A DNA stretch of 64,000 nucleotides. Origin: Candidatus Nomurabacteria bacterium. GTDB taxonomy: Bacteria > Patescibacteriota > Patescibacteriia > HK-STAS-PATE-3. The position numbers and the translations under genes are program-made. The notes below the pieces were generated by a model. The model searched no databases and was not told the DNA's origin. It saw only the letters and a list, made by a program, of their open reading frames with translations. Position 1 is the first letter of the stretch, and every line of letters begins with the position of its first letter. The stretch spans positions 960,001 to 1,024,000 of the forward strand of contig CP060223.1 of the NCBI GenBank assembly GCA_023898465.1. Direction: 5' to 3'. Below are positions 6,852 to 53,276 of this stretch, piece after piece.

Positions 6852-8561
6852 ATGGTAGCTACATCCTCATCTTCCAACACTAGTTCATCTCACTCCATCC
6901 CGATTGCTCCAAAAGAAGTCGAGCAGCGTTTTGATAGAAAAATGGAGCAAATGAAGCAGCGAGAATTAGAGCGTCAGGTGCGCGATGAGGCCATTCGGCG
7001 AGGTTTGGGATATACCACCTTAGTAGGAGTGCCGATTGACCAAGACAGCCTCAAGGCCATACCCCGCGAAACTGCGCTGCAAAGGAAAATGATTTGCTTC
7101 AACCGTAGTCGCGAAGAAATGCGTGTAGCCGTACTTGATCCGAATCAAGAGGGTTTGGATGAGTTGCTGCAAAAATTAAGTGAGGAACAAAACCTGGCGA
7201 TCGGTCTCTACCTTGTTTCGCCAAAAAGTATTCAGGCAGCCTTAACGCAGTATGATACTTTGCCGCAAATTAAACCCCAAGTGAGTGGCGTGCAAGTAAC
7301 AGAAAAAGATTTGAATCGCTTCCGCAAAGAACCAACCCTACTCAAAGACCTGGAGGATCAACTCAATCGCATTCCAGTTACTGATGTGTTGAGTTTATTA
7401 CTCGCTAGTGCAACACAATCCCGAGCAACAGATATTCATATTGAGGCTGAGGAAAATGACGTGAAGATTCGCTTCCGTATTGATGGCATCCTACATACCG
7501 TTGCTACCTTACCAAAAGAGTCATGGAAAAAACTTATTAGCCGTATCAAGATTTTGGCCGGCCTGAAGCTAAACATTGAAGACAAGCCACAGGATGGTCG
7601 CATTACTTTACGACTCAGCGACGATGAAGTTGATATCCGTGTTTCCACCGTACCTACTGCCTATGGCGAGAGCGTGGCCCTTCGTTTACTTCTCGCTTCA
7701 GAGGCTGGACTTACCTTAGACGACCTGGGATTGCGTGGACAAGCCTTCGAGCAGTTGAAGCGAGAAATTAGTCGACCAAATGGCATGATAATTACCACTG
7801 GTCCAACCGGGTCCGGTAAAACCACGACGCTCTATGCTTTCTTAAAGCAGTTAAATCGACCAGAAACAAAAATCCTTACCCTGGAGGATCCGATTGAATA
7901 TAAGCTGGAAGGCATTAATCAGAGCCAAGTGAATCCCGAGGAAGGGTACAATTTTGTGCGCGGATTAAAGCACGCCCTCCGACAAGACCCAGACATTGTT
8001 ATGGTCGGTGAAATTCGTGATTTGGAAACTGCCGAGATTGCTATACAAGCGACACTGACTGGTCACTTAGTGATAAGCACGCTGCATACCAATAATGCGG
8101 CCGGTGCAGTGCCGCGTTTCTTATCGCTTGGCGTGAAGCCATTCTTACTCGCTCCCGCCCTGAATGCAGTTATTGGTCAGCGTCTGGTACGGCGCTTGTG
8201 TCAGGAATGTAAAAAGCCAGCTGAGTTGGATGGTGAGACAAGCCAGCGGATTAAAGAGTATTTAGAAAAAATTCCCGAGGATTCAAAGTTCCGACCAGAC
8301 ATGTCAAAACCGCTTACCTTCTACATCGGCGGCGGCTGTGAAGTCTGCGGCGGCATTGGCTATCAGGGTCGTGTTGGTATCTACGAAGTGATGACCATGA
8401 ACCAAGAGTTGGAAAAGCTAGTACTGGCCGGAAACACGTCTGAATATGATATTGAGGCTAATGCGGTAAAGCACGGCATGATTACCATGGTGCAGGACGG
8501 TTTACTAAAAGCACTCGACGGCATTACTTCAGTAGACGAAGTCTTCCGCGTCGCGGAATAA
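6852..8561 (+). CDS. pilB: Type II secretion / type IV pilus assembly ATPase (GspE/PilB family)
   Basis: Walker A TGPTGSGKTTT, Asp box, Walker B VGEIRD, His box TLHTN, and a C-terminal tetracysteine (CQEC...CEVCGG). Start chosen at the MVATSS ATG. Confidence 0.85.
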   Translation: MVATSSSSNTSSSHSIPIAPKEVEQRFDRKMEQMKQRELERQVRDEAIRRGLGYTTLVGVPIDQDSLKAIPRETALQRKMICFNRSREEMRVAVLDPNQEGLDELLQKLSEEQNLAIGLYLVSPKSIQAALTQYDTLPQIKPQVSGVQVTEKDLNRFRKEPTLLKDLEDQLNRIPVTDVLSLLLASATQSRATDIHIEAEENDVKIRFRIDGILHTVATLPKESWKKLISRIKILAGLKLNIEDKPQDGRITLRLSDDEVDIRVSTVPTAYGESVALRLLLASEAGLTLDDLGLRGQAFEQLKREISRPNGMIITTGPTGSGKTTTLYAFLKQLNRPETKILTLEDPIEYKLEGINQSQVNPEEGYNFVRGLKHALRQDPDIVMVGEIRDLETAEIAIQATLTGHLVISTLHTNNAAGAVPRFLSLGVKPFLLAPALNAVIGQRLVRRLCQECKKPAELDGETSQRIKEYLEKIPEDSKFRPDMSKPLTFYIGGGCEVCGGIGYQGRVGIYEVMTMNQELEKLVLAGNTSEYDIEANAVKHGMITMVQDGLLKALDGITSVDEVFRVAE

Positions 8562-8918: not shown

Positions 8919-9650
8919 CTACGCGGCAATTAACTCATCCGAGTAGGCTCGTTCAGTAATTTCATTTAATATATATTCGTCACGGCGAAGGTTTGAGATG
9001 GTGACCATTTGACCATCCTTAAACATCTCTGCTTGATAAATTTCTTGATCTGACTCCGAGCTGAGAGTGACTTTTGCATCACCGAAATCGATAATATAAA
9101 AATTTCCCTCATTATCAATCATCACATTTCCGAAGTGTAAATCACGATGATAAATATTTGCTTCGTGCAGCTGTAAAATCATTTGCTTGAGCTGGTCCCT
9201 CATTTCCTTAATTTCGCTTTTCTCAAAACGACGTCCTTCCCTTTTCATATCACGAAACCATTGTTCAAGTGTGCGACCCTCGATTGCCTTCATAGCAAGT
9301 AAGGCGTGAAAATCGCCATTGCCTTCTCGACTTTCAATATATGCTAAGAGAGGAGGAACCCGTATTCCCGCCCGTTCTGCTTCTTGATGAATTTCAAATT
9401 CTCGGCGGAGGGTGTTTACTGTTGCGTGAGGGTCATGGATTGTTTTTGTGCACGTTTTATCAGAGTAGAAAGGATCTTGACCAACCCAGACTTCTCCTGA
9501 TTTTCCAATTCCGAGCTGTTCTCGTCTCTCATATTGTTCTTGAAAATGCTCCAGTAGCTCTCGAGCTGTCTCATCTATTTCAAATTCCTTAGCCTCAGCG
9601 TTTCGACCTCGGAAATATTCAGTGGTAAATTGGGCGCGTTCAATGCTCAT
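8919..9650 (-). CDS. Protein-kinase-like fold protein (RIO/Kdo-kinase-like mini kinase)
   Basis: 243 aa with catalytic-loop YHRDLHFGNVMI and IIDFGDA (DFG) motifs. Lies 11 nt downstream of valS on the same strand. Confidence 0.6.
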   Translation of the reverse strand: MSIERAQFTTEYFRGRNAEAKEFEIDETARELLEHFQEQYERREQLGIGKSGEVWVGQDPFYSDKTCTKTIHDPHATVNTLRREFEIHQEAERAGIRVPPLLAYIESREGNGDFHALLAMKAIEGRTLEQWFRDMKREGRRFEKSEIKEMRDQLKQMILQLHEANIYHRDLHFGNVMIDNEGNFYIIDFGDAKVTLSSESDQEIYQAEMFKDGQMVTISNLRRDEYILNEITERAYSDELIAA

Positions 9651-9661
9651 GTATTGAGGTA

Positions 9662-12202
9662 TTAACTGCTGCTCAAACTACTTAGTTGTTCCTTCAGGTT
9701 GCTAATATCCTCCTGCGTGGAAGCGCGTAATTCCTCCGGGATACGTGGATTATTGAGCATCGCCTCTTTTTTGGCAATGAGCTGCGTTAAACGCTCTCCT
9801 TCTTTTTCTAACCATTCGGCAAAGGCGGCGACTCGCGGGCGAGGGAAGCTTAATTCCAAGGCCCCGAGCTGAAGCTTGCTCGCATCCTTAGCTGCCGGGC
9901 CAAATGAAATCTTGGTGAGTTTTTCTAAGAGCTCAGTCGCATATCCCGTCTTACTGAGTAAGTGCGCGTGTTCTTCAGTGCTAATTCCGCTATGGGCCTT
10001 AAATGCGCGCAGTGATTGTACGGTTTGTTGGAAGCGTTGGAATTCTTTTTCTGCCTCCAGGTCAATAAAGGTTTTTTGCGGCTGCGGCCAGGCGCTAACA
10101 ATGAGCATTGAGCCCTTGGGATAGAGTTCGCGCCAAATGCGTTCAGTGAAAAAGGGGAGGTAGGGATGGAGCATCTTCAAGATGTGCTCGAGCACGTGTC
10201 GGATGACCGCCGGGTTATTTTCCGTTTTGGCAACTTCTAAATACCAGTCAGCAAATTCATGCCAGGCGAAAGTATATACTTCCTCAGCAGCCGCGCTAAA
10301 ACGATAAGCGTTGAGATGTTCAGTACTTGTTTTAATGCAAGTCTGAAGTCGGGAGAGAATCCATTGGTCAGCCAGACTATGGGCTGCCAAAGTAGTTTCT
10401 TTTTCTTCCACGCCCTGCAAAAGCGCAAAGCGGCTAATATTCCAGAGCTTGTTTACAAAGTTGCGATACGCAGCAATTTTTTGCTCTGATAAACGAGTGT
10501 CATTTCCCGGCGTTGTCCCAATAATGAGGGAGAGTCGTGTGGCGTCAGCGCCATACTTATCAGCCATCTCAAGCGGGTCAATACCATTACCGAGAGACTT
10601 TGACATTTTTCGTCCATGTTCATCACGCACCAGGCCGTGGAGATAGACTGTTTGAAATGGAACCTCTTGTAGGGCATAGGTAGACATGAGAATCATGCGG
10701 GCTACCCAGAAGAAGAGTATGTCATAACCTGTTTCCATGACGCTGGTTGGATGGAAGCGTTTGAGATCCTCAGTCTGCTTTGGCCAACCCAAAGTAGAGA
10801 AGGTCCATAAGCCAGATGAGAACCAGGTATCAAGCGTATCTGATGATTGTTGCCACTCCTTTCCCTTAGGGGCTTTTTCGCCAACATGGATTTCCTTTTG
10901 CTCAGGATTTTTTTCTGATGGACGTTCCCAAACTGGCAAACGATGACCGTACCAAATTTGTCGCGAGATATTCCAATCATGCAGATTTTCCATCCAGTGC
11001 TGGTAAATCTTTTTAAAGCGAGATGGCACGAAAGCTATTTCATCTTGAGTAGCTACCTCTAAAGCTCGCTGCTTCAGGCTTTTTCCATTCAATTTCTTTG
11101 TTGGGGTATCAACACTAATAAACCATTGTTCAGACGGGAGAGGCTCTAGCGCAGTGCCGCAGCGATAACAGGTTGCCAGGTTGTGGTTGTAGTTTTCGTC
11201 AATGTGATCAACCAGTCCTTTTTCTTGAAGAATCTCTACCACCTTCTTTCTCGCTTCTTGTACATCGATGCCAGCATAGGTGCCAGCAGCTTCGGTGAGC
11301 TTGCCTTGTTCATTGATAATTTTTTCGACCGGCAGTTGATATTTTTTAGCCAACTCAAAATCAAGTAGGCTATGACCCGGTGTGATCGTCATTGCACCAC
11401 TGCCAAGTTTCGGATCAGCTGATTCGTCCGCAATCACTCGAGCAGTGATTGGGCCATTGATCCACTCCAGTGCGAATTCTTTATCGATCATATCTCGGTA
11501 GCGCGTATCATCCGGATGAACAATAATTACCTTATCGCCGAATTTCGTTTCTGGACGGGCGGTACCAATAATCACCGGACCGTATTTGAAATAGTAGAAG
11601 GGTGCTTTTTCTTCCTTATACTCGACCTCGTCATCAGCTAAAGTGGATTGACAGCGAGTGCACCAATTTACTACCCGTTGACCACGGTAAATGAGACCGT
11701 CTTCATACATTTGTATAAACATGGTTTGGACGGCCTTGCTTAGACCCTCATCAAGTGTGAAGCGTTCACGGCTCCAATCACAAGAAGCACCGAGTCGTTT
11801 CATCTGTTCGGTAATTTGACCTTGCGATTCTTTTACAAATTTTTCTACCAGCTTGAGAAATTTTTCTCGACCCAAATCGTCCTTAGTTTTTTTTTCAGCC
11901 TTAAGTTTCTTCTCCACAACATTTTGAGTTGCAATTGCAGCATGATCTGTGCCGGGTAACCAGAGCGTTCGTTCACCCTTCATCCGATGATAGCGTACGA
12001 GGGTGTCTTGAAGAGCAATCATCACAGCGTGACCCATATGAAGATTTGCTGTGGTGTTTGGTGGCGGTAAGGCAATCGAAAAAGTAGGGGCACTCTCTGG
12101 TACTTTTAATTTATCTGGATTAAAGGCGCCGGACTTTTCCCACGCTTCGTAAATACCTTTTTCTTCTTCTTTTGGATTGTAGGTTTTGGAGAGCTCTTTC
12201 AT
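9662..12202 (-). CDS. valS: Valine--tRNA ligase
   Basis: 846 aa. HIGH-type motif NLHMGHA, KMSKS, editing domain, C-terminal coiled coil. Confidence 0.95.
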   Translation of the reverse strand: MKELSKTYNPKEEEKGIYEAWEKSGAFNPDKLKVPESAPTFSIALPPPNTTANLHMGHAVMIALQDTLVRYHRMKGERTLWLPGTDHAAIATQNVVEKKLKAEKKTKDDLGREKFLKLVEKFVKESQGQITEQMKRLGASCDWSRERFTLDEGLSKAVQTMFIQMYEDGLIYRGQRVVNWCTRCQSTLADDEVEYKEEKAPFYYFKYGPVIIGTARPETKFGDKVIIVHPDDTRYRDMIDKEFALEWINGPITARVIADESADPKLGSGAMTITPGHSLLDFELAKKYQLPVEKIINEQGKLTEAAGTYAGIDVQEARKKVVEILQEKGLVDHIDENYNHNLATCYRCGTALEPLPSEQWFISVDTPTKKLNGKSLKQRALEVATQDEIAFVPSRFKKIYQHWMENLHDWNISRQIWYGHRLPVWERPSEKNPEQKEIHVGEKAPKGKEWQQSSDTLDTWFSSGLWTFSTLGWPKQTEDLKRFHPTSVMETGYDILFFWVARMILMSTYALQEVPFQTVYLHGLVRDEHGRKMSKSLGNGIDPLEMADKYGADATRLSLIIGTTPGNDTRLSEQKIAAYRNFVNKLWNISRFALLQGVEEKETTLAAHSLADQWILSRLQTCIKTSTEHLNAYRFSAAAEEVYTFAWHEFADWYLEVAKTENNPAVIRHVLEHILKMLHPYLPFFTERIWRELYPKGSMLIVSAWPQPQKTFIDLEAEKEFQRFQQTVQSLRAFKAHSGISTEEHAHLLSKTGYATELLEKLTKISFGPAAKDASKLQLGALELSFPRPRVAAFAEWLEKEGERLTQLIAKKEAMLNNPRIPEELRASTQEDISNLKEQLSSLSSS

Positions 12203-12217
12203 TGGAGATTTTCTTGG

Positions 12218-12478
12218 ATAAATAAAAACGCCTTACTGTTTGTAAGGGTCCACGATGTTGCATCGGGACGGTACCACCTTACTCGCCCTCCGTAGCCTCG
12301 TGCGAAGGAGGGCTTCCGAAGAACTCTTCATTGACGCATGCTGACGGATGCGATCCGGCCAACTTACCTCAGTACCACCTAGGGTACAGGATTCAGTTAG
12401 CAGCTTCCCCAAGGGACACAATGTCTAATACATAGCCAGACAATCTTGGGTTAAGTGCTTTTCGTGAAATGAGAAATA
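12218..12478 (-). promoter_or_regulatory. T-box riboswitch leader of valS, with intrinsic terminator and sigma70-like promoter
   Basis: The minus-strand leader contains the T-box core AAGGTGGTACCG (forward complement at 12270-12278). It is followed by a terminator hairpin ccttac-aaacag-taagg plus cgtttttattt (12218-12247). Upstream lies TTGACT-17-TACTAT (~12484-12512). Confidence 0.6.
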
Positions 12479-12597
12479 ACTGCTTCGATAGTAGGCTTTT
12501 TTCATAAGTCAGTCAAGAACGCTTGACCAAGTTTTATTATCTACGCTAGGGTCAGAATAGATTTTGCAATGGCTGTTTGACAATGGAGGAAAAAGCG

Positions 12598-12909
12598 ATG
12601 AGCTGCAATCCACGGAATGTGCGGAATCGTCGACGGAATCTGTACGTAGCCCTTGGCCGTTTGGGGTTGCCACCGGATCAGCATCAGGAAGAGAAGCGGA
12701 AGATACGTGATGCCTGTCGTCATGGCAGGGCCTACGTGTTGCCTCCTCGCCGCGGTCGATCCATTTCCAAGCCGGTCTGTCGACCGTGTAATGGGAAGGG
12801 AAAGCGCGACTGTCATCTCTGTAATGGCAGGAGTAGTGGATGCTACTACTGCAATTACACTGGCAAGAAGACTTGCAACGTTTGCATGGGTGAGGGAGTG
12901 ACTACCTAG
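12598..12909 (+). CDS. Small basic protein with a DnaJ-type zinc finger (4x CxxCxGxG)
   Basis: GGAGGA Shine-Dalgarno 8 nt before the ATG at 12598. C-terminus is CRPCNGKG..CHLCNGRS..CYYCNYTG..CNVCMGEG. Lies in GC-rich cassette A. Confidence 0.55.
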   Translation: MSCNPRNVRNRRRNLYVALGRLGLPPDQHQEEKRKIRDACRHGRAYVLPPRRGRSISKPVCRPCNGKGKRDCHLCNGRSSGCYYCNYTGKKTCNVCMGEGVTT

Positions 12910-12924
12910 GAGTAAGGAGCTTCG

Positions 12925-13176
12925 ATGTCACAGAAGCGGCGTGGGCACTTGCTCATGCAAACGAACGTGGTAGGACTTGGACTTATCGCGATTTGGTATA
13001 CACCAGTTGGAAAAAGTCGACACGAGCTTGTTTCCTGGACAGTTACTTTTTCCTGTGGAGAAGTGTGTAGAATCAGAGGCCGCAGCCAGCACGAAATCAT
13101 AGCAACGTCTCGTCGTGAACACGGTGAATGTCGTCTGGGGTCTGCCTGTAGAGTGATTGCCTGCGACGAGCTGTGA
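12925..13176 (+). CDS. Hypothetical Cys-containing small protein
   Basis: AAGGAG Shine-Dalgarno before the ATG; 83 aa; GC-rich cassette A. Confidence 0.45.
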   Translation: MSQKRRGHLLMQTNVVGLGLIAIWYTPVGKSRHELVSWTVTFSCGEVCRIRGRSQHEIIATSRREHGECRLGSACRVIACDEL

Positions 13177-13282
13177 CACTTCCTTGCTCGGTTGTTGTCC
13201 GAGGCTGCTTGTCGTATACTAGATCTAGCGCCTCTCTTGCGAGGCATCAACAGAGCACCTTCACATACAGAAGGAGGATCTC

Positions 13283-13384
13283 ATGAAGATCAGGTCTCCC
13301 GTGAGCGTTGTCGTATCTCCGACTGCCGATGTTGATCGGCTCAACGCCTCCGGGAAGGAGGTGGTCCTAATCGAGAGGTCCTAG
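13283..13384 (+). CDS. 33-aa peptide ORF with a perfect Shine-Dalgarno (MKIRSPVSVVVSPTADVDRLNASGKEVVLIERS)
   Basis: GAAGGAGGA Shine-Dalgarno 5 nt upstream of the ATG. Followed by terminator hairpin gacggcca/tggccgtc (~13402-13436). Confidence 0.3.
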   Translation: MKIRSPVSVVVSPTADVDRLNASGKEVVLIERS

Positions 13385-13457
13385 GAGGCGTTGTGGGTTT
13401 CTGACGGCCATACTGTGTGTGGCCGTCGTTTCTTTGCCGCAGAATCCAGGGAGGGAG

Positions 13458-13635
13458 TATGTCGAAGGAGGAATCGAATTCTGCCCTAGGGGACTTTGTC
13501 TCAACCGTGCTGGGTTTCCTCGGTGCGCTCGCAGTCATGTTTGCTGCGTTGCTCGGCGCCCTGCTTCTCGCCTTCGTGAAAACACCGGATCTCGATCCAT
13601 ATGATGATCGTGGTCCGGTCTCTCGACAGCATTGA
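13458..13635 (+). CDS. Small single-pass membrane protein
   Basis: AGGGAGGGAG Shine-Dalgarno before the ATG at 13458. Hydrophobic core VLGFLGALAVMFAALLGALLLAFV. Confidence 0.45.
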
Positions 13636-13645
13636 CTGACATCCA

Positions 13646-13672
13646 CCTCTCTAGGCAACTAGGGAGGTTTTG
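13646..13672. terminator. Bidirectional rho-independent terminator (cassette A / tsaD)
   Basis: cctctctag-gcaa-ctagggagg stem followed by ttttgctt. Confidence 0.5.
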
Positions 13673-13673
13673 C

Positions 13674-14723
13674 TTAGGTTGTTTTTGATAGACTCCAGTT
13701 TGGGTCAGCCTTGAGTAACTTCCAATCTGTATATTTTTTTTGCTTCGCCTGGAAATACCCCGCTGCGGCAATCATTGCTGCGTTATCAGTGCAGTAAGGG
13801 AGATTAGGTTTCAAAAAAGTGACGGCTGGAAATCGACGCGCGACAGCCGCGCTAAGTTCAGCGCGGAGCCGCCCATTGGCGGCCACGCCGCCGGCCAGCA
13901 GCAAAGTGTTGACCTTATGTTCTTGCAGGGCCCGCAGCGTTTTTCCAATCAACACATCAACTACCGCCTGTTCAAAAGAGGCGGCAATATCAGGCAAGTC
14001 TTTTTTCTTTGGATGATGCTTTTCTAAATGATAGCGCACGGCAGTTTTTAATCCAGCAAAAGAGAATTCAAGGTTAGCGCTTTTCAGCATTGGTCGCGGC
14101 CAGCTGTAGGCTTTTGGATTCCCTGTGCTAGCCAGCGTACTTAAGACTGGTCCACCCGGATAACCTAAACCCATTAACTTGGCCACTTTATCAAAGGCTT
14201 CGCCGGCGGCGTCGTCGCGCGTCTCACCAAGCAGTTGGAATTTCCCATAACCACGCATGAGTACAAGTTCAGTGTGACCTCCTGACACGAGTAGTCCCAA
14301 GGCTGGGAAAGGTGCCTTAAGTATACTTGGCGTATTTCCCTCCGCATCTGGTAACCAATTTGCATAGAGGTGGCCGGCCAGATGGTTCACTCCTACTAAA
14401 GGTTTTTTTAAAGTCCAAGCCAACGTCCGCCCTACTTCAACTCCAACCATTAGGGCTGACATGAGTCCTGGGCCGGCTGTCACTGCAATGACATCAATAT
14501 CTTCAAGTGTTATTTTAGCCTCATGCAGGGCAGCATCAAGGCCGGGAATAATAACTTCAAGGTGCATGCGCGCAGCTACTTCAGGCACTACGCCACCAAA
14601 TTTTGCATGAGTCTTTACCTGTGAGGCAACAAAGTGACTACGGACAAGAAAATGATCAGCCTTTCTCTCGAGAATGGCGATTGAGGTTTCGTCACAAGAT
14701 GATTCAATGCCGAGGATGATCAT
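13674..14723 (-). CDS. tsaD: tRNA N6-adenosine threonylcarbamoyltransferase TsaD (Kae1/Gcp)
   Basis: 349 aa. MIILGIESSCDETS N-terminus and HxxGH metal motif (HLAGHLYA). Confidence 0.9.
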   Translation of the reverse strand: MIILGIESSCDETSIAILERKADHFLVRSHFVASQVKTHAKFGGVVPEVAARMHLEVIIPGLDAALHEAKITLEDIDVIAVTAGPGLMSALMVGVEVGRTLAWTLKKPLVGVNHLAGHLYANWLPDAEGNTPSILKAPFPALGLLVSGGHTELVLMRGYGKFQLLGETRDDAAGEAFDKVAKLMGLGYPGGPVLSTLASTGNPKAYSWPRPMLKSANLEFSFAGLKTAVRYHLEKHHPKKKDLPDIAASFEQAVVDVLIGKTLRALQEHKVNTLLLAGGVAANGRLRAELSAAVARRFPAVTFLKPNLPYCTDNAAMIAAAGYFQAKQKKYTDWKLLKADPNWSLSKTT

Positions 14724-15298
14724 GTGAGTTGTTTCCGTCGAATGAGGAGTAAGACGCTGAGTGAACCATCAAGCAAGACAATTGCAGCCGGGTAGAGCCA
14801 GGTACTTGGTACTATAGTGTCCAGAGCCAGAAGTGCAAAGACGTGGGCAATTGCGGCAAAAGCGTAGGATAGCACCTTTTCCTCATGCGGATAATGGTAA
14901 CCTTTTCGAAAAGTAGGAAGTGAGCCAAAAAAATCAACCAAGACAATAAGTACGATGGATGCTAGAGGCTCTTTTGTGAGTATCCAAAGGAGTAAAGAAA
15001 AAGCTGCGGCACTCAAGGCAATCCAATCAAAGCGTAAGAAGCGGCGATCTCCCCATTTCAGCGCGCCAATAAATATAAGCAGGCAAGATATGGAGTTAAT
15101 CCCAGTGACCCAGGCGCCTGGCCCGGCATCTTTCGCAATCTGAGCAGCAAAGGCGATAATGTTGAGCGTACCCCAGACTAACCAGGAAAAGGCATGTGGT
15201 TTGAGCTCTTTGCGTAGAACGCCGCGGACATATAAAAGGTCTCCAGATATGAGCAGTAGCGAGCCGATAATGCCAAAAAGTGTGGTCATACTTTGCAT
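14720..15298 (-). CDS. Hypothetical polytopic membrane protein, translationally coupled to tsaD
   Basis: 192 aa with about 5 TM segments. Four-nt overlap with the tsaD start. Confidence 0.5.
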   Translation of the reverse strand: MQSMTTLFGIIGSLLLISGDLLYVRGVLRKELKPHAFSWLVWGTLNIIAFAAQIAKDAGPGAWVTGINSISCLLIFIGALKWGDRRFLRFDWIALSAAAFSLLLWILTKEPLASIVLIVLVDFFGSLPTFRKGYHYPHEEKVLSYAFAAIAHVFALLALDTIVPSTWLYPAAIVLLDGSLSVLLLIRRKQLT

Positions 15299-30267: not shown

Positions 30268-32328
30268 TTATTTCTTTCCCCACCTACCCCGACCGGGTAG
30301 ATTGGCGTGACTTCGTTTGCCGCGCCGCGCGCGTAGGCTGCTTGTCCGCTTGGTCGGTTTCATTTGCGCGCGCAGTTCACTAATCTGATCGCGCAGCCGG
30401 GCAGCTTTTTCAAATTCCAAATTCCGAGCGGCTAAGTCCATGTGCCCTTCTAGCTCTCGAATAAGTTTAGGCAGCTCCTCGGCCGGGATGTCACCCATGC
30501 TTGGTTCGGGTGTTTCTTCTTCTACGCGTTTTTGGCCCGAGAGGCGATCCTCTTTGATAGCCTTTTTGATTCCTTTTGGAGTGATGCCGTGAGTTGTGTT
30601 GTAGTCCTGCTGGATTTTTCTGCGTCGTTCAGTTTCTTTTATAGCCCGGCGCATCGAGCCAGTCATTTTATCAGCGTACATAATAACGGTGCCATTGATA
30701 TGGCGCGCGGCGCGGCCCATAGTTTGGATGAGGGAGGTTTCAGAACGAAGATAGCCTTCTTTGTCAGCATCCAGAATAGCTACCAGAGAAACTTCTGGCA
30801 GATCGAGCCCTTCCCGCAGCAGGTTAATACCCACCACCACGTCATAGGTGCCAAGCCGTAAGTCACGGAGGATTTCCAATCGCTCCATTGTGTCCACATC
30901 GGCGTGAAGGTAGTGCACCTTAATACGCAGCTCGCGTAAATACTCAGCCAGGTCCTCAGCCATTCGTTTCGTAAGCGTCGTGATGAGGACGCGTTCCTTT
31001 GCGTGAATACGCTTTTCCACCTCTTCAACCAGGTTATCGATCTGATGCTTGGTTGGTCGGATCTCTATCACCGGATCGAGTAAGCCGGTCGGGCGGATAA
31101 CCTGCTCTACCACTTGACTACTGCGCTGTATCTCTAGATCGGTTGGCGTGGCTGAGACGTAAACAGTCTGCCCGGTGCGTTGTTCGAATTCATCTACTCG
31201 CAGCGGTCGGTTATCCAGTGCAGCTGGCAGGCGGAATCCAAAGTTCACCAGGTTTTGTTTGCGTGCTCGATCGCCCTCGTACATCCCGCGGATTTGCGGT
31301 AGGGTAATATGCGACTCATCAATGAAGAGGAGGAAGTCTTTTGGGAAGAAGTCGAGCAAGGTGTAGGGTGGCATGCCAGGTTTGCGGAAGGAGAAAAAGC
31401 GAGAATAATTTTCCACTCCATTGCAATAACCAGTAGCGGCAATCATTTCCATATCAAAGCGAGTGCGCTCTTCTATACGCTGCGCTTCAATCAGCTTATC
31501 GTGCTGTTTAAACCACTGCACGCGCTCGACCATTTCAGCTTCAATAGCCTGGAGAATCTCTTTTATTTTGTCTTTAGGAGTGACAAAGAGGCGAGCCGGA
31601 TAAATAGTGGTGGACTGCATAGTTTCGAGCGCATCACCGCTCAGAGGGTCGAGCTCAACAATGCGGTCAATCTCATTTCCAAAGAAGCTCACTCGCAAAC
31701 CGGTTTCTGCGTAGGCTGGATACACATCCACTGTATCGCCACGCACCCGGAAAGTACCGCGCCGGAAATCCTGCTCATTTCGCTGGTACAGGTTTTCTAC
31801 CAGCTGCTTCTGAAAATCATAGGGCGCTAATTGTTTTCCAAGCTTTAGGTCAATCGCAACACCTTGATATTCCTCTGGTGAACCAATACCGTAGATGCAA
31901 GAAACAGAGGCGACGATGATAACATCTTTGCGAGTGAGTAAGTCACGCGTGGCTGCATTGCGCAATCGTTCAATCTCCTCGTTAATTTGTGTTTCCTTTT
32001 CTATATAGGTATCAGAGCGCGGGATGTAGGCCTCTGGTTGGTAGTAGTCATAGTAGGACACAAAGTAGTCAACGGCGTTCTCCGGGAAAAATTCTTTAAA
32101 CTCAGAAGCCAGCTGAGCGGCCAATGTTTTGTTATGCGAAATGATTAAGGTTGGTTTACCAATATTGGCAATGACATTTGCCATGGTAAAAGTTTTACCT
32201 GAGCCCGTGACGCCCAGGAGGGTTTGATAATGATTACCCTTTTGCAGACCCTTGGTTAAGCCCTCGATTGCCTTGGGTTGGTCGCCGGTTGCTTGGAATG
32301 GAGAGACGAGCGTAAATGGAGAAGACAT
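30268..32328 (-). CDS. uvrB: Excinuclease ABC subunit B
   Basis: 686 aa. Walker A GVTGSGKT, helicase motifs, C-terminal UVR coiled coil (..[12 protein letters not shown]..). Confidence 0.95.
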
Positions 32329-36810: not shown

Positions 36811-37386
36811 ATGAGTGGCAAAACACTCATCTCTGTATTCGACAAGTCTGGATTGGTTGAAGCCCTTGCTCCACTTCATAAGCTCGGCTACACGGAGCGA
36901 CTGGCTTCGGCGGGTACGGCGAAACTACTGACCGAGTCTGGTATGCCGACCGATGACGTAGCGAGCTTGGTCGGCGGAGGACCGATCCTGGGACACAAGG
37001 TAGTGACTTTGTCCCGTGAGGTTCACGCAGGTCTTCTGGCCAGCGAGGCTGAGCAAGCTGAGCTGAATGAATTGGGCATCCCACGGATCGAAATCCTCAT
37101 CGTCGGGTTCTATCCACTGCACGCGGCGCTGGTTGACCCGGGCCGTACTTTGGCATCTGTGCTGCAGTCGCTCGACATCGGTGGTCCGACCATGGTGATG
37201 TCTGCAGTGAAGGGTGGACGCATTGTCGTGGTCGACCTGAACGATATTCCCCAGCTCGTGCGCTACCTGAAGGGCGAGTTATCGGATGGTCCCGGCTTCC
37301 TGGCCACCTTGTGGTGGAAGGCGGCAGCCAGGGTGGCTGAGTACTACGCTTCCCTGGCAATGTATCTCAATGAGTACCGCCGTTAG
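36811..37386 (+). CDS. MGS-like domain protein resembling the IMP-cyclohydrolase (PurH N-terminal) domain
   Basis: AAGGAGGA Shine-Dalgarno. TLISVFDKSGLVEALA..LASAGTAKLL..GMP..VASLVGG.ILGH.VVTL...HAGLLA parallels the PurH/MGS signature. Confidence 0.5.
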   Translation: MSGKTLISVFDKSGLVEALAPLHKLGYTERLASAGTAKLLTESGMPTDDVASLVGGGPILGHKVVTLSREVHAGLLASEAEQAELNELGIPRIEILIVGFYPLHAALVDPGRTLASVLQSLDIGGPTMVMSAVKGGRIVVVDLNDIPQLVRYLKGELSDGPGFLATLWWKAAARVAEYYASLAMYLNEYRR

Positions 37387-37427
37387 CCTGATCTCAGGAT
37401 CGTACAGTGACATCCACTCGGTTCTTT

Positions 37428-37471
37428 GCCCCGCCACGATCTACATACAGTAGTAGTGGGCGGGGCTTTTT
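37428..37471 (+). terminator. Rho-independent terminator
   Basis: gccccgccac...gtgggcggggc followed by ttttt, then TTGACT. Confidence 0.65.
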
Positions 37472-37547
37472 CTTGACTGCGTACAACTATGTGCTAAGGT
37501 CGGCGTAGAGTTTCTTGAGCGGGGTAGAAACAGAAGGAGGGTGTGAC

Positions 37548-38531
37548 ATGCCGTTCTTTGACAGTAGTCCTGTAATCCTGAGTGGTAGTGCACACCCGGC
37601 ATTAGCCACTGCGATTGCCAGAAACCTGGGACTAGATCCGGGGGCTATGAATGTCGGTCGCTTTCCGGATCATGAGATCAAAGTGCAGATCGGCGGAAAC
37701 ATTCGTGGTAAGGACGTTTTCATTGTCCAGCCAACGCATGCAACTGCTGATCGAGGCTCGGACAACTTGCTAGAACTACTCATCATGACTGATGCTGCAC
37801 GGCGTGCGTCGGCCGAACGCATCACTGTTGTTCTTCCTTACTTCGGGTACGCCCGACAGGATCGGAAGGACAAACCTCGGGTGCCTATCACTGCGAAGTT
37901 GGTGACGAGCATGATTCAGCATGCCGGCGCTGATCGCTTCCTCAGCATTGATTTGCACTCGGGCCAGATCCAGGGCTTCACTGACGCTCCCTTTGACCAT
38001 CTCTATGGTTGGATCGTCTTGCTGCCGGTGATCAAGTCCCTCAATCTTGCGGCACTTTCCATCGGGTCGGTCGATCTGGGCGGAGCAACTATGGTTGGGA
38101 ACTGGCGCTCGCGTATTCCGGGGTCTGATGTGGTGCTGATCGACAAGCAGCGATTGGGCGATCGAAGCACCAGGATCAGGCAAGTGATCGGCGAAGTTGA
38201 AGGCCGCGATATGGTTCTGGTTGACGATGTGCTTAGCAGTGGCATTTCCATGGAGGTAGCGGCTAGGGCTATGCAAGAGCGAGGCGCGCGTAGTGTTCGT
38301 GCAGCGGTGACCCACGGAGTTTTCTGTGAAGACTGTATTCGTCGGTTGGAGGAGGCGCCGATAACCGAAGTGTATGTGACCGATACCTTGCCTCTCCCGA
38401 GCAGCCTTCCAGGCAAGTTCCGCGTTTGTTCGGTGGCACCGTTGCTCGGCGACGCCATCATGGACATTCACAACTCGAATTCACTCACCCACCATTTTGG
38501 GCTGGATGGATCGGATGTGAAAAGCGAATGA
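37548..38531 (+). CDS. prs: Ribose-phosphate pyrophosphokinase (PRPP synthetase)
   Basis: AGGAGGG Shine-Dalgarno before the ATG at 37548. DHEIKVQIGGNIRGKDVFIVQ, VLPYFGYARQDRK, and PRPP-binding loop VLVDDVLSSG. Confidence 0.85.
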   Translation: MPFFDSSPVILSGSAHPALATAIARNLGLDPGAMNVGRFPDHEIKVQIGGNIRGKDVFIVQPTHATADRGSDNLLELLIMTDAARRASAERITVVLPYFGYARQDRKDKPRVPITAKLVTSMIQHAGADRFLSIDLHSGQIQGFTDAPFDHLYGWIVLLPVIKSLNLAALSIGSVDLGGATMVGNWRSRIPGSDVVLIDKQRLGDRSTRIRQVIGEVEGRDMVLVDDVLSSGISMEVAARAMQERGARSVRAAVTHGVFCEDCIRRLEEAPITEVYVTDTLPLPSSLPGKFRVCSVAPLLGDAIMDIHNSNSLTHHFGLDGSDVKSE

Positions 38532-52235: not shown

Positions 52236-53276
52236 ATGGCAACAAAAACAAGCAGTCAGGAAAACGATAGCGCCGGACGCGGCAAAGCAGCTGAAATAGC
52301 TATTGAGCAAATTCGCGAGCGTTTTGGCGACGGTTCGATTATGAAGCTGGGAGAAGCACGTAAATCTGATGTGGAAGCAGTTTCCACTGGATGCTTATCC
52401 CTTGATATTGCTCTTGGTGTTGGCGGCGTACCCCGTGGGCGCGTTATTGAGATTTATGGACCGGAAGCTTCAGGTAAAACAACCCTTGCTCAGCACATTG
52501 TCGCCGAGGCACAGAAGAAAGGCGGTTTAGCGGCTTTTATCGATGCTGAGCACGCGCTTGACCCTGACTATGCTCGTAAGATTGGCATTAAGGTTGATGA
52601 TTTACTCATTTCTCAGCCTGATACCGGCGAGCAAGCCTTGGATATCTTAGAGACCTTGGTGCGTTCAAACGCAGTAGATATTATCGTCGTTGACTCGGTT
52701 GCTGCCTTAACACCAAAGGCGGAAATTGAAGGAGAAATGGGTGACTCACATATGGGTTTGCAAGCTCGCCTCATGAGTCAGGCCTTACGTAAGCTTACCG
52801 CTCTAATTTCTCGATCTCGCACCATTGTTATCTTCATCAACCAAACACGCATGAAGATCGGTGTCTTCTTTGGGAATCCTGAGACAACCACAGGTGGTAT
52901 GGCGTTGAAGTTTTATTCCTCAGTTCGCATCGAGATTCGACGTATTGGTCAAATTAAGCAGGGCGAACGGATTATTGGTAGCCGCACTAAAGCAAAAGTA
53001 GTGAAGAATAAAGTGGCCGCACCATTTAAGGTGACCGAGTTCGATATCATGTACAACGAAGGAATCTCCGTAGCCGGCGACCTCATTGATACTGGTCTCC
53101 AATATGGCGTGGTTGAAAAACGAGGTAATACCTATTCCTTTGGTGAAGCCAAGTTGGGAGTAGGTAATTACGCAGCACGCGACTTCCTTAAAAATGAGCA
53201 GAAATTACAGCAAGAAATTCGTACGCAAATTCTCGCTGCCGTGAAAGCAGAGCAGGAAGAAGCAGACAAAAAATAG
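52236..53276 (+). CDS. recA: Recombinase RecA
   Basis: [11 protein letters not shown] Walker A and the L1/L2 loop region. AAGGAG Shine-Dalgarno. Confidence 0.97.

Follow-up and report, generated by a model that had tools for sequence, protein, structure and literature searches.

The closest described counterparts of the small-gene island treated here are the cysteine-rich domain (CRD) of DnaJ, the anti-TRAP protein of Bacillus, terminator-based leader RNAs and type I toxin-antitoxin loci. The island consists of four small open reading frames (ORF1 to ORF4) between valS and tsaD in a Candidatus Nomurabacteria bacterium (assembly GCA_023898465.1, contig CP060223.1, positions 960,001 to 1,024,000). 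This whole stretch of 64,000 nucleotides (nt) is called the window, and positions are counted from its first letter. The DnaJ CRD has a V-shaped fold in which one zinc ion (Zn1) is bound by repeats 1 and 4 and the other (Zn2) by repeats 2 and 3. The at operon, from which anti-TRAP is expressed, is itself controlled by a T-box. Anti-TRAP (RtpA) is a stand-alone, DnaJ-CRD-like zinc protein of 53 amino acids (aa) (PMC2896485, PMC4027176).

The first protein of the island, ORF1, is like the CRDs of DnaJ (PF00684) and BSD2 (PF25436; PDB 6ekb) in having eight Cys residues in four CxxC units with Gly after them, for which two Zn ions would be expected. Unlike DnaJ, with its long hairpin inserts between the repeats, ORF1 has evenly spaced units, and it is without a J domain, a G/F region or the C-terminal substrate domains. 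With anti-TRAP, it shares the character of a small bacterial stand-alone Cys-rich, putatively zinc-binding protein encoded in a genomic setting with a T-box leader. Anti-TRAP, however, has four Cys residues and one Zn per monomer, whereas the ORF1 module has eight Cys; moreover, the T-box here controls the divergent valS instead of ORF1, and no TRAP-like partner is known. Terminator-based leaders (riboswitches, T-boxes, and leader-peptide attenuators) show the same succession as the second half of the island, namely a promoter, an end-paired structured 5' RNA, a terminator, and a Shine-Dalgarno sequence (SD) with its gene. They differ in that here there is no Rfam match, no antiterminator was found, the target would be ORF4 (58 aa, one predicted transmembrane (TM) segment), and only two sequences can be compared. 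Type I toxin-antitoxin loci such as hok/sok and tisB/istR resemble the locus in that a hydrophobic ORF of <60 aa follows a heavily folded 5' RNA and a short ORF precedes it (cf. mok). In contrast to these, ORF4 is an acidic protein, the polar tail of which is conserved, an intrinsic terminator separates it from the leader, the locus is present in a single copy, and no antisense RNA gene is evident.

Anatomy of the island and its relatives

The explanation that we favor, with somewhat better than even confidence, is that the island is a clade-restricted, vertically inherited block of small genes, located between tsaD and the T-box-controlled valS in a slot of variable content and comprising two transcription units that oppose the flanking genes. 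The first unit (promoter at ~12523-12552) would encode a zinc-knuckle binding protein, ORF1, together with a small partner protein, ORF2. The second (promoter at 13192-13220) would begin with a rod-like RNA of ~170 nt followed by an intrinsic terminator; ORF4 would be transcribed only upon read-through of this terminator, with the leader acting as an attenuator-type cis-regulator. The block is carried by the plus strand, whereas valS (9662-12202) and tsaD (13674-14723) are on the minus strand. An earlier note on this DNA had described four tandem ORFs with strong SDs between the valS leader and tsaD. Their coordinates hold, and a GGAGG-type SD is located 3-8 nt 5' of each of ORF1, ORF2, ORF3, and ORF4. 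The features of the island are the following.

12523-12552, plus strand: putative promoter P1 of ORF1 and ORF2, read from the sequence (TTGACC, 18 nt, TAGGGT), with a predicted transcription start site
12598-12909, plus strand: ORF1, 103 aa
12925-13176, plus strand: ORF2, 83 aa
13188-13202, plus strand: hairpin CTCGG/CCGAG after ORF2, a weak terminator candidate that overlaps the -35 box of P2 and has one compensatory pair
13192-13220, plus strand: putative promoter P2 (TTGTTG, 17 nt, TATACT), invariant in the relative L001 and with a host-like -10 box; predicted transcription start at ~13227
13227-13395, plus strand: rod-like structured leader RNA of ~170 nt, from folds and pairing in the window and L001
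13283-13384, plus strand: ORF3, an open frame of 33 aa, probably not a gene
13402-13428, plus strand: stem of the intrinsic terminator after ORF3 (12-bp stem, 3-nt loop), with the U tract running to 13437, ~20 nt 5' of the SD of ORF4
13459-13635, plus strand: ORF4, 58 aa
13645-13675, plus strand: terminator hairpin (13645-13668) and U tract that end the ORF4 unit, convergent with the tsaD stop at 13674

The same arrangement occurs elsewhere. The window corresponds to a metagenome contig (Logan SRR12358676), and a sister metagenome contig of 2.6 kb (L001) aligns end to end and colinearly with positions 12174-14862, at 79 % nt identity, and the promoter region, ORF1, and ORF2 are free of indels between the two. 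The segment 12521-12598, which contains P1, is 87 % identical and gap-free, and its sequence GCTAGGGT resembles the GCTAYAMT -10 element of the host. Conservation outside this genome was found for three of the ORFs: ORF1, ORF2, and ORF4 recur in L001, ORF1 also in contig L004, and ORF2 also in L003. In tsaD-anchored scans of the GTDB genomes and JGI metagenomes, the only close relatives were L003 and L004 (70-71 % TsaD identity) and L083, which is truncated and ends 160 nt after tsaD. The next relatives have a TsaD identity of ~50-54 %, and several of these are labelled Patescibacteria or Saccharibacteria. An exact 27-mer from ORF2 had no match in the GTDB genomes or JGI metagenomes, and three further contigs that carry ORF2 are 100 % identical to the window and add no variation.

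L004 encodes a 77-aa homologue of ORF1 at the same place and in the same orientation, between a T-box-preceded valS and tsaD, followed by a RidA-like gene. In L003, a 77-aa homologue of ORF2 is encoded next to tsaD, beside a CDP-alcohol phosphatidyltransferase gene (CDP-OH_P_transf). In the more distantly related L005 and L006, tsaD runs directly into valS and the slot is empty, while the slot of L007 holds an IS200-like Y1 transposase and a TrmB-like regulator. As its contents differ among L003-L007, the slot is variable, and the content seen in the window is confined to one small clade. A repeat search revealed no direct or inverted repeats bordering the block, which is thus without a mobile-element signature.

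The proposed second transcription unit: leader RNA, ORF3 and ORF4

The predicted helices of the leader RNA, all on the plus strand, are listed below.

13229-35 with 13384-90, plus strand: outer helix
13258-62 with 13270-74, plus strand: hairpin
13275-86 with 13371-82, plus strand: long helix
13325-30 with 13335-40, and 13345-51 with 13357-63, plus strand: inner hairpins

When the orthologous leaders of the window and L001 were folded independently, the same rod architecture was obtained, with z-scores of -3.17 and -4.73. In the consensus structure, 56 of 56 pairs are kept in both sequences, and seven compensatory double changes were counted as against 0-1 in slid controls, which is suggestive of a maintained structure. 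The long helix 13275-86/13371-82, in which the SD and AUG of ORF3 are located, accounts for three of these seven. The stem of the terminator at 13402-13437 is also kept in L001, with one compensatory pair. The succession of promoter, structured RNA, hairpin with U tract, and SD with gene, with no intervening promoter, is that of a generic terminator-gated leader; since the SD of ORF4 follows ~20 nt after the terminator, there is no room for another promoter. The leader RNA is, judging from these elements, most likely an attenuator-type, terminator-gated cis-leader of ORF4.

ORF3 had been put forward as a 33-aa peptide ORF with a perfect SD, immediately followed by a terminator. Frame, SD, and terminator are all present, but the peptide is not conserved, as the frame is shifted in L001 by indels of 1 and 2 nt. 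Two synonymous and 19 nonsynonymous codon changes separate the two sequences, the differences are spread over the codon positions as 12/13/8, and no coding signature is seen in the comparison, while the SD and AUG are paired within the conserved RNA helix. Unsupported as a peptide gene, ORF3 is probably a by-product of a leader RNA that is rich in GGAGG/CCUCC.

A role of ORF3 as a translated leader peptide, in which the position of the ribosome decides the fate of the terminator at 13402-13437 and ORF4 is subject to ribosome-mediated attenuation, could account for the strong SD GAAGGAGGA, which is located 5 nt before the ATG and is kept in both genomes. The similar lengths of the two frames (33 and 30 codons), the ends of which are 18-31 nt upstream of the terminator stem, and the richness in Val of the window ORF3 (7/33), which adjoins valS, would fit in as well. 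However, neither sequence nor frame is conserved, with Val at only 3 of the 30 codons in L001, and a helix that three compensatory changes have preserved sequesters both the SD and the AUG. The distance from stop to terminator, furthermore, differs by 13 nt between the genomes. With an unconserved, frameshifted peptide and no alternative antiterminator in the folds, the locus does not have the features of a leader-peptide attenuator, and we regard this explanation as unlikely.

The structured RNA might also be an independent, trans-acting small RNA of ~210 nt (13227-13437), with ORF4 being expressed incidentally or via another signal. It has a conserved, host-like putative promoter of its own as well as a strong terminator, it forms a rod that is closed by pairing of the 5' with the 3' end, and its loops and stems are rich in GGA. 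We nevertheless consider this improbable: the short distance between terminator and ORF4 SD leaves no space for the promoter that ORF4 would then need, the codon usage of ORF4 is gene-like and its SD is conserved, and neither a second copy of the RNA nor a target is recognizable.

The reading that we prefer, in which the leader gates ORF4, requires that ORF4 is a gene. As the earlier note had stated, this 58-aa protein is predicted to have a single TM segment: it is acidic (isoelectric point (pI) 4.6), and there is one strongly hydrophobic segment (KD19 2.56), followed by a polar, conserved C-terminal tail, PDLDPYDDRGPVSRQH. Its codon score of 0.15 is gene-like, and a ratio of nonsynonymous to synonymous divergence (dN/dS) of 0.30 was obtained between the window and L001. 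In the latter, the SD is kept and the ATG is a TTG; the TM segment is conserved, changes in the tail are mostly at third positions, and a 1-nt deletion lies between TM segment and tail. The terminator hairpin after ORF4 persists in L001 with changed pairs, as read from the alignment. These observations point to ORF4 as probably being a weakly constrained protein gene.

The earlier note had further compared ORF3 and ORF4, as a speculation, to a toxin/regulatory-peptide module. For ORF4, this likeness consists in a hydrophobic protein of <60 aa that is preceded by an extensively folded 5' region, a feature of type I toxin mRNAs. ORF4 is acidic, however, unlike the typically cationic type I toxins, and no antisense promoter or small RNA is evident: apart from weak consensus matches, no antisense promoter with a terminator was found. 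A PADLOC or toxin-antitoxin family was not matched either, though no such family was put to the test. The lack of conservation of the ORF3 peptide likewise tells against a peptide module. What precedes ORF4 instead of an antisense partner appears to be a terminator-gated leader, and the toxin reading is unsupported.

The proposed first transcription unit: ORF1 and ORF2

ORF1 had been described as a 103-aa basic protein ending in four CxxCxGxG repeats. Size and basic character were borne out (pI 10.1, 23 K+R versus 6 D+E, 10 Cys), but only two of the four repeats are exact (CRPCNGKG and CNVCMGEG), the other two being CHLCNGRS and CYYCNYTG. The C-terminal module contains eight Cys in four CxxC units at intervals of 10-11 residues, with linkers of 7/6/7, and is preceded by a basic two-helix or Pro-rich N-terminal extension (two helices are predicted). 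Units 1 and 2 are a 33-nt tandem duplication (12769-12827, plus strand; 73 % nt identity) encoding KPVCRPCNG and KRDCHLCNG, which shows that the Cys module expanded through duplication of its units.

All eight module Cys residues are conserved in L001, without indels. Between the window and L001, a dN/dS of 0.42 (dS 0.43) was obtained, with 38 nonsynonymous and 23 synonymous changes where ~47 and 14 would be expected under neutrality; the ratio is significantly below 1. The C-terminus of the L004 homologue aligns to all eight module Cys (E 2e-5), its second motif being CxC. The only homologue of ORF1 among 5.8 billion proteins is P0001, encoded on L001 (67 % identity), and a profile search of the same set with the ORF1 alignment also returned P0001 only. 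ORF1, ORF2, and ORF4 had no significant match in Pfam, NCBIfam, PHROGs, PDB, the 5.8 billion proteins, or viral and phage collections. ORF1 and ORF2 are taken as coding because of their dN/dS values and because L003 and L004 show similarity at the protein level only; on these grounds, we accept ORF1 as a real, weakly constrained coding gene, an orphan without a detectable family.

That ORF1 is a stand-alone DnaJ-type CRD acting as a holdase or assembly factor was the other half of the earlier note's model. In its favor, there are the eight Cys in four CxxC units, with two exact CxxCxGxG motifs, and the fact that the best, albeit weak, matches of ORF1 are to the BSD2 CRD and to DnaJ. None of these matches is significant. 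PF00684 gave no match at E<=1, and BSD2_CRD (PF25436) scored 13.2 bits (E 0.11) against a cutoff of 27. BSD2 chains were best in a PDB profile search, at E 2.4-3.3, while the NCBIfam DnaJ model was hit by the L004 homologue only, at E 4.2. BLASTP of ORF1 against E. coli DnaJ gave E 0.28, and hhalign against a DnaJ CRD alignment of five sequences (four loci and E. coli) gave a probability of 30 % (P 5.5e-4). The spacing of the repeats (7/6/7) differs from that in E. coli DnaJ (~13/18/10), and the second motif of the L004 homologue departs from CxxC. The likeness is thus at the level of motifs, and profile comparisons (the PDB profile search and hhalign) yielded no significant family for either ORF1 or ORF2. 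Taken as a whole, with the holdase and the toxin module together, the model is rather improbable.

The J domain (PF00226) gave no match in ORF1, and an HPD motif is absent. A degenerate J domain at the N-terminus was considered and is unsupported, the only similarity to the DnaJ N-terminus being a 10-residue segment at E 1.7. Anti-TRAP of B. subtilis gave an hhalign probability of 15 % over 11 columns. Weak tblastn matches of ORF1 in L085 and L086 were dismissed, as they lie inside an ORF of 580 aa that was read as encoding a putative secretion ATPase. The AF2 model of ORF1 has a pLDDT of 52, with values <50 over residues 52-103, and is too poor for a fold search.

In the preferred reading, ORF1 probably binds two Zn ions and would act by zinc-dependent binding of a partner, either nucleic acid or protein, and not as a DnaJ-type chaperone module, although confidence in this is low. 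It accompanies a divergently transcribed T-box valS leader in all three genomes (3/3) in which the junction is visible. In a bolder form of this reading, leader and terminator would be a riboregulator of a new class that responds to a ligand or a protein and gates a micro-protein with a single TM segment, or ORF1 would represent a new zinc-knuckle fold of four tandem 11-residue CxxC units with a regulatory role tied to the divergent T-box leader of valS; this is improbable.

ORF2 is, as the earlier note had it, an 83-aa Cys-containing protein (12925-13176). It is basic, predicted to be all-beta, and its conserved core, WYxPxGK...VTFSCG...H-x2-C-x5-C.V...DE, the Cys/His residues of which could be a metal site, is kept in L003. 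The homologue encoded there shows 39 % identity (E 4e-9) and has its own SD and terminator. Identity with L001 is 93 % at the nt level, with a dN/dS of 0.40 and a dS of 0.17. ORF2 is accepted as a real, weakly constrained coding gene and as an orphan. Its true start is uncertain, as the ATG is replaced by ACG in L001. ORF1 and ORF2 share a reading frame; they are separated in the window by two in-frame stops (TAG and TAA, 12907-12927) and in L001 by a single TAG (712-732). Given the ACG, translation of ORF2 in L001 would have to start at a non-AUG codon or internally (Met11), or else depend on read-through of the stop.

As the ORF2 region is so similar at the nt level, has a low dS, and lacks the ATG in L001, a conserved non-coding RNA was conceivable here. 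This idea was rejected: folding z-scores were +0.36 and +1.69, the L003 homologue is recognizable at the protein level where the DNA cannot be aligned, and dS is equally low in stretches of tsaD. Ribosomal protein L31, suggested by an SCGxVxxIR motif, was likewise discarded (hhalign probability 4 %, no Pfam match). When ORF2 was compared by a full HMMER scan with 1.84 billion representatives, the only matches were perfect-repeat proteins with artefactual summed scores, namely P0003 (six identical fn3 units) and P0004. In L003, the ORF2 homologue and the neighboring gene have REP-like palindromes on their flanks, with the sequence GTAGGCGAAGTTGGCCAGCTTCGCCTAC or variants of it (~7040-7070, 7985-8012, 7940-7970).

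Origin of the island and weighing of the evidence

The block had been called GC-rich. Its GC content is indeed raised, but modestly so (0.50-0.585, the mean of the window being 0.476), and some stretches of tsaD reach the same level. An SD is found at the annotated start of two of 28 large host ORFs, or in seven of 41 when starts anywhere within the first 100 codons are admitted, as compared with four of the four island ORFs; GGAGG-type SDs precede 4.6 % of all ATGs in the window. Codon-usage log-odds of ORF1, ORF2, and ORF3 are below those of every real-gene chunk. The raised GC, the atypical codons, and the strong SDs in an SD-poor genome suggest that the island is of old foreign origin, having been acquired from an SD-using source and then inherited vertically within the clade.

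With regard to the host, an extended -10-like element, TGCTAYAMT, is present 6-8 nt before the ATG of many genes, e.g., those at 14720-15298 (minus), 23295 (plus), 30268-32328 (minus), 33737 (plus), and 58886 (plus). This suggests widespread leaderless mRNAs, in a genome that is poor in SDs and in part leaderless. Strong SDs precede only few host genes, which encode an MGS-like protein, PRPP synthetase, and RecA (36811-38531 and 52236-53276, both plus). The stretch at 36-39 kb is GC-rich (0.53-0.555), like the island.

Several points weigh against the explanation that we favor. On the RNA side, a search of Rfam with ORF3 and the leader RNA gave no family, only noise at E >1, and a covariance model of the leader found no second copy. 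No alternative antiterminator pairing appeared in folds of partial transcripts, which weakens the case for regulated read-through. Only two full orthologous loci were available, which makes the covariation statistics weak; as the structure that was tested had been derived from the same two sequences, they are suggestive only. On the protein side, the dN/dS of ORF1, ORF2, and ORF4 (0.3-0.4) indicates a far weaker constraint than that on tsaD (0.07). The dS of ORF1 and ORF2 is low, but so is that of stretches of tsaD, and it may reflect recombination tracts and not function. The AF2 models (pLDDT 52 for ORF1 and 49 for ORF2), which are the source of the predicted helices of ORF1 and all-beta fold of ORF2, are unreliable, and both are too poor for a fold search. 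L001, finally, has ACG for the ATG of ORF2 and a 1-nt deletion inside ORF4: either its copies are decaying or ORF2 and ORF4 matter less than was assumed.

Alternatively, the whole block might be foreign DNA in decay, with some or even all of its small ORFs having ceased to function as genes. Its atypical GC, codon usage, and SD usage, the dN/dS of 0.3-0.4, the lost ORF2 ATG and frameshifted ORF4 of L001, and the varying gene content of the slot among relatives might indicate this. It is very unlikely, however, because ORF1 and ORF2 are open and indel-free at an nt identity of ~80-90 %, relatives with a TsaD identity of 70 % still encode homologous proteins although their DNA cannot be aligned any more, dN/dS is <1 (significantly so for ORF1), and promoters, SDs, and terminators are conserved.

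The valS leader and flanking genes

Two features lie between the island and valS.

12241-12464, minus strand: divergent T-box leader of valS, a match to RF00230, flanking the island and outside it
12512-12527, both strands: palindrome GTCAAGAACGCTTGAC with back-to-back -35 boxes, read from the sequence and kept in L001

An Rfam scan of the whole window at the gathering threshold did not match the valS leader. In a focused search, RF00230 matched it over the full model span (1-219) with 21.6 bits and an E-value of 0.0056, far below the gathering score of 93. By sequence, the leader is a T-box all the same, having a terminator-pairing motif upstream of an aminoacyl-tRNA synthetase gene. It contains the T-box motif GGUGGUACC, with GUAAGGUGGUACCG at ~12270-12283 (minus), and the motif is present in L001 and L004 as well. 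Pairing is possible between its GUAAGG and the CCUUAC in the 5' arm of the terminator CCUUACAAACAGUAAGG, which is followed by a U tract directly before valS; this terminator (12247-12231) and U tract lie 3' of the motif. A second copy of GGUGGUAC is found in the leader at ~12377-12384. Such a divergent T-box would escape standard Rfam annotation.

On the palindrome GTCAAGAACGCTTGAC, the minus-strand -35 box TTGACT, with TACTAT as the -10 box (down to 12488), is predicted to belong to the promoter of the valS leader. The plus-strand box TTGACC was assigned to the putative promoter of ORF1.

Further observations concern the flanking genes. The synonymous divergence of tsaD between the window and L001 is mosaic, with a dS of 0.29 in the middle of the gene and saturation in its N-terminal part, which suggests recombination tracts between lineages in tsaD (13674-14723). 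The valS gene of L004 (8008-10962, plus) has an insertion of ~125 aa (984 versus 846 aa) without a Pfam match. A Pkinase/Kdo/RIO-like kinase of 243 aa (8919-9650, minus) is encoded directly downstream of valS and thus near tsaD, a member of the Kae1/TsaD family. A kinase near tsaD recalls the Kae1-Bud32 pairing of archaea and eukaryotes.

Meaning of the finding

The island is a modest curiosity and not a recognizable system; it resolves no long-standing question, and the evidence comes from a thin base of two to four genomes. The case illustrates that a GGAGG-rich structured RNA can mimic a peptide gene with a "perfect" Shine-Dalgarno sequence, and the leader RNA is a candidate for a new cis-regulatory element. 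An SD-using island in an SD-poor, apparently leaderless host raises the small question of how acquired genes are translated in such genomes. If its proteins are real, the island would contribute three micro-proteins that belong to no known family and come from a deep and uncultivated lineage with Patescibacteria as its nearest named relatives, and one of these, ORF1, would be an evenly repeated eight-Cys zinc-knuckle module.

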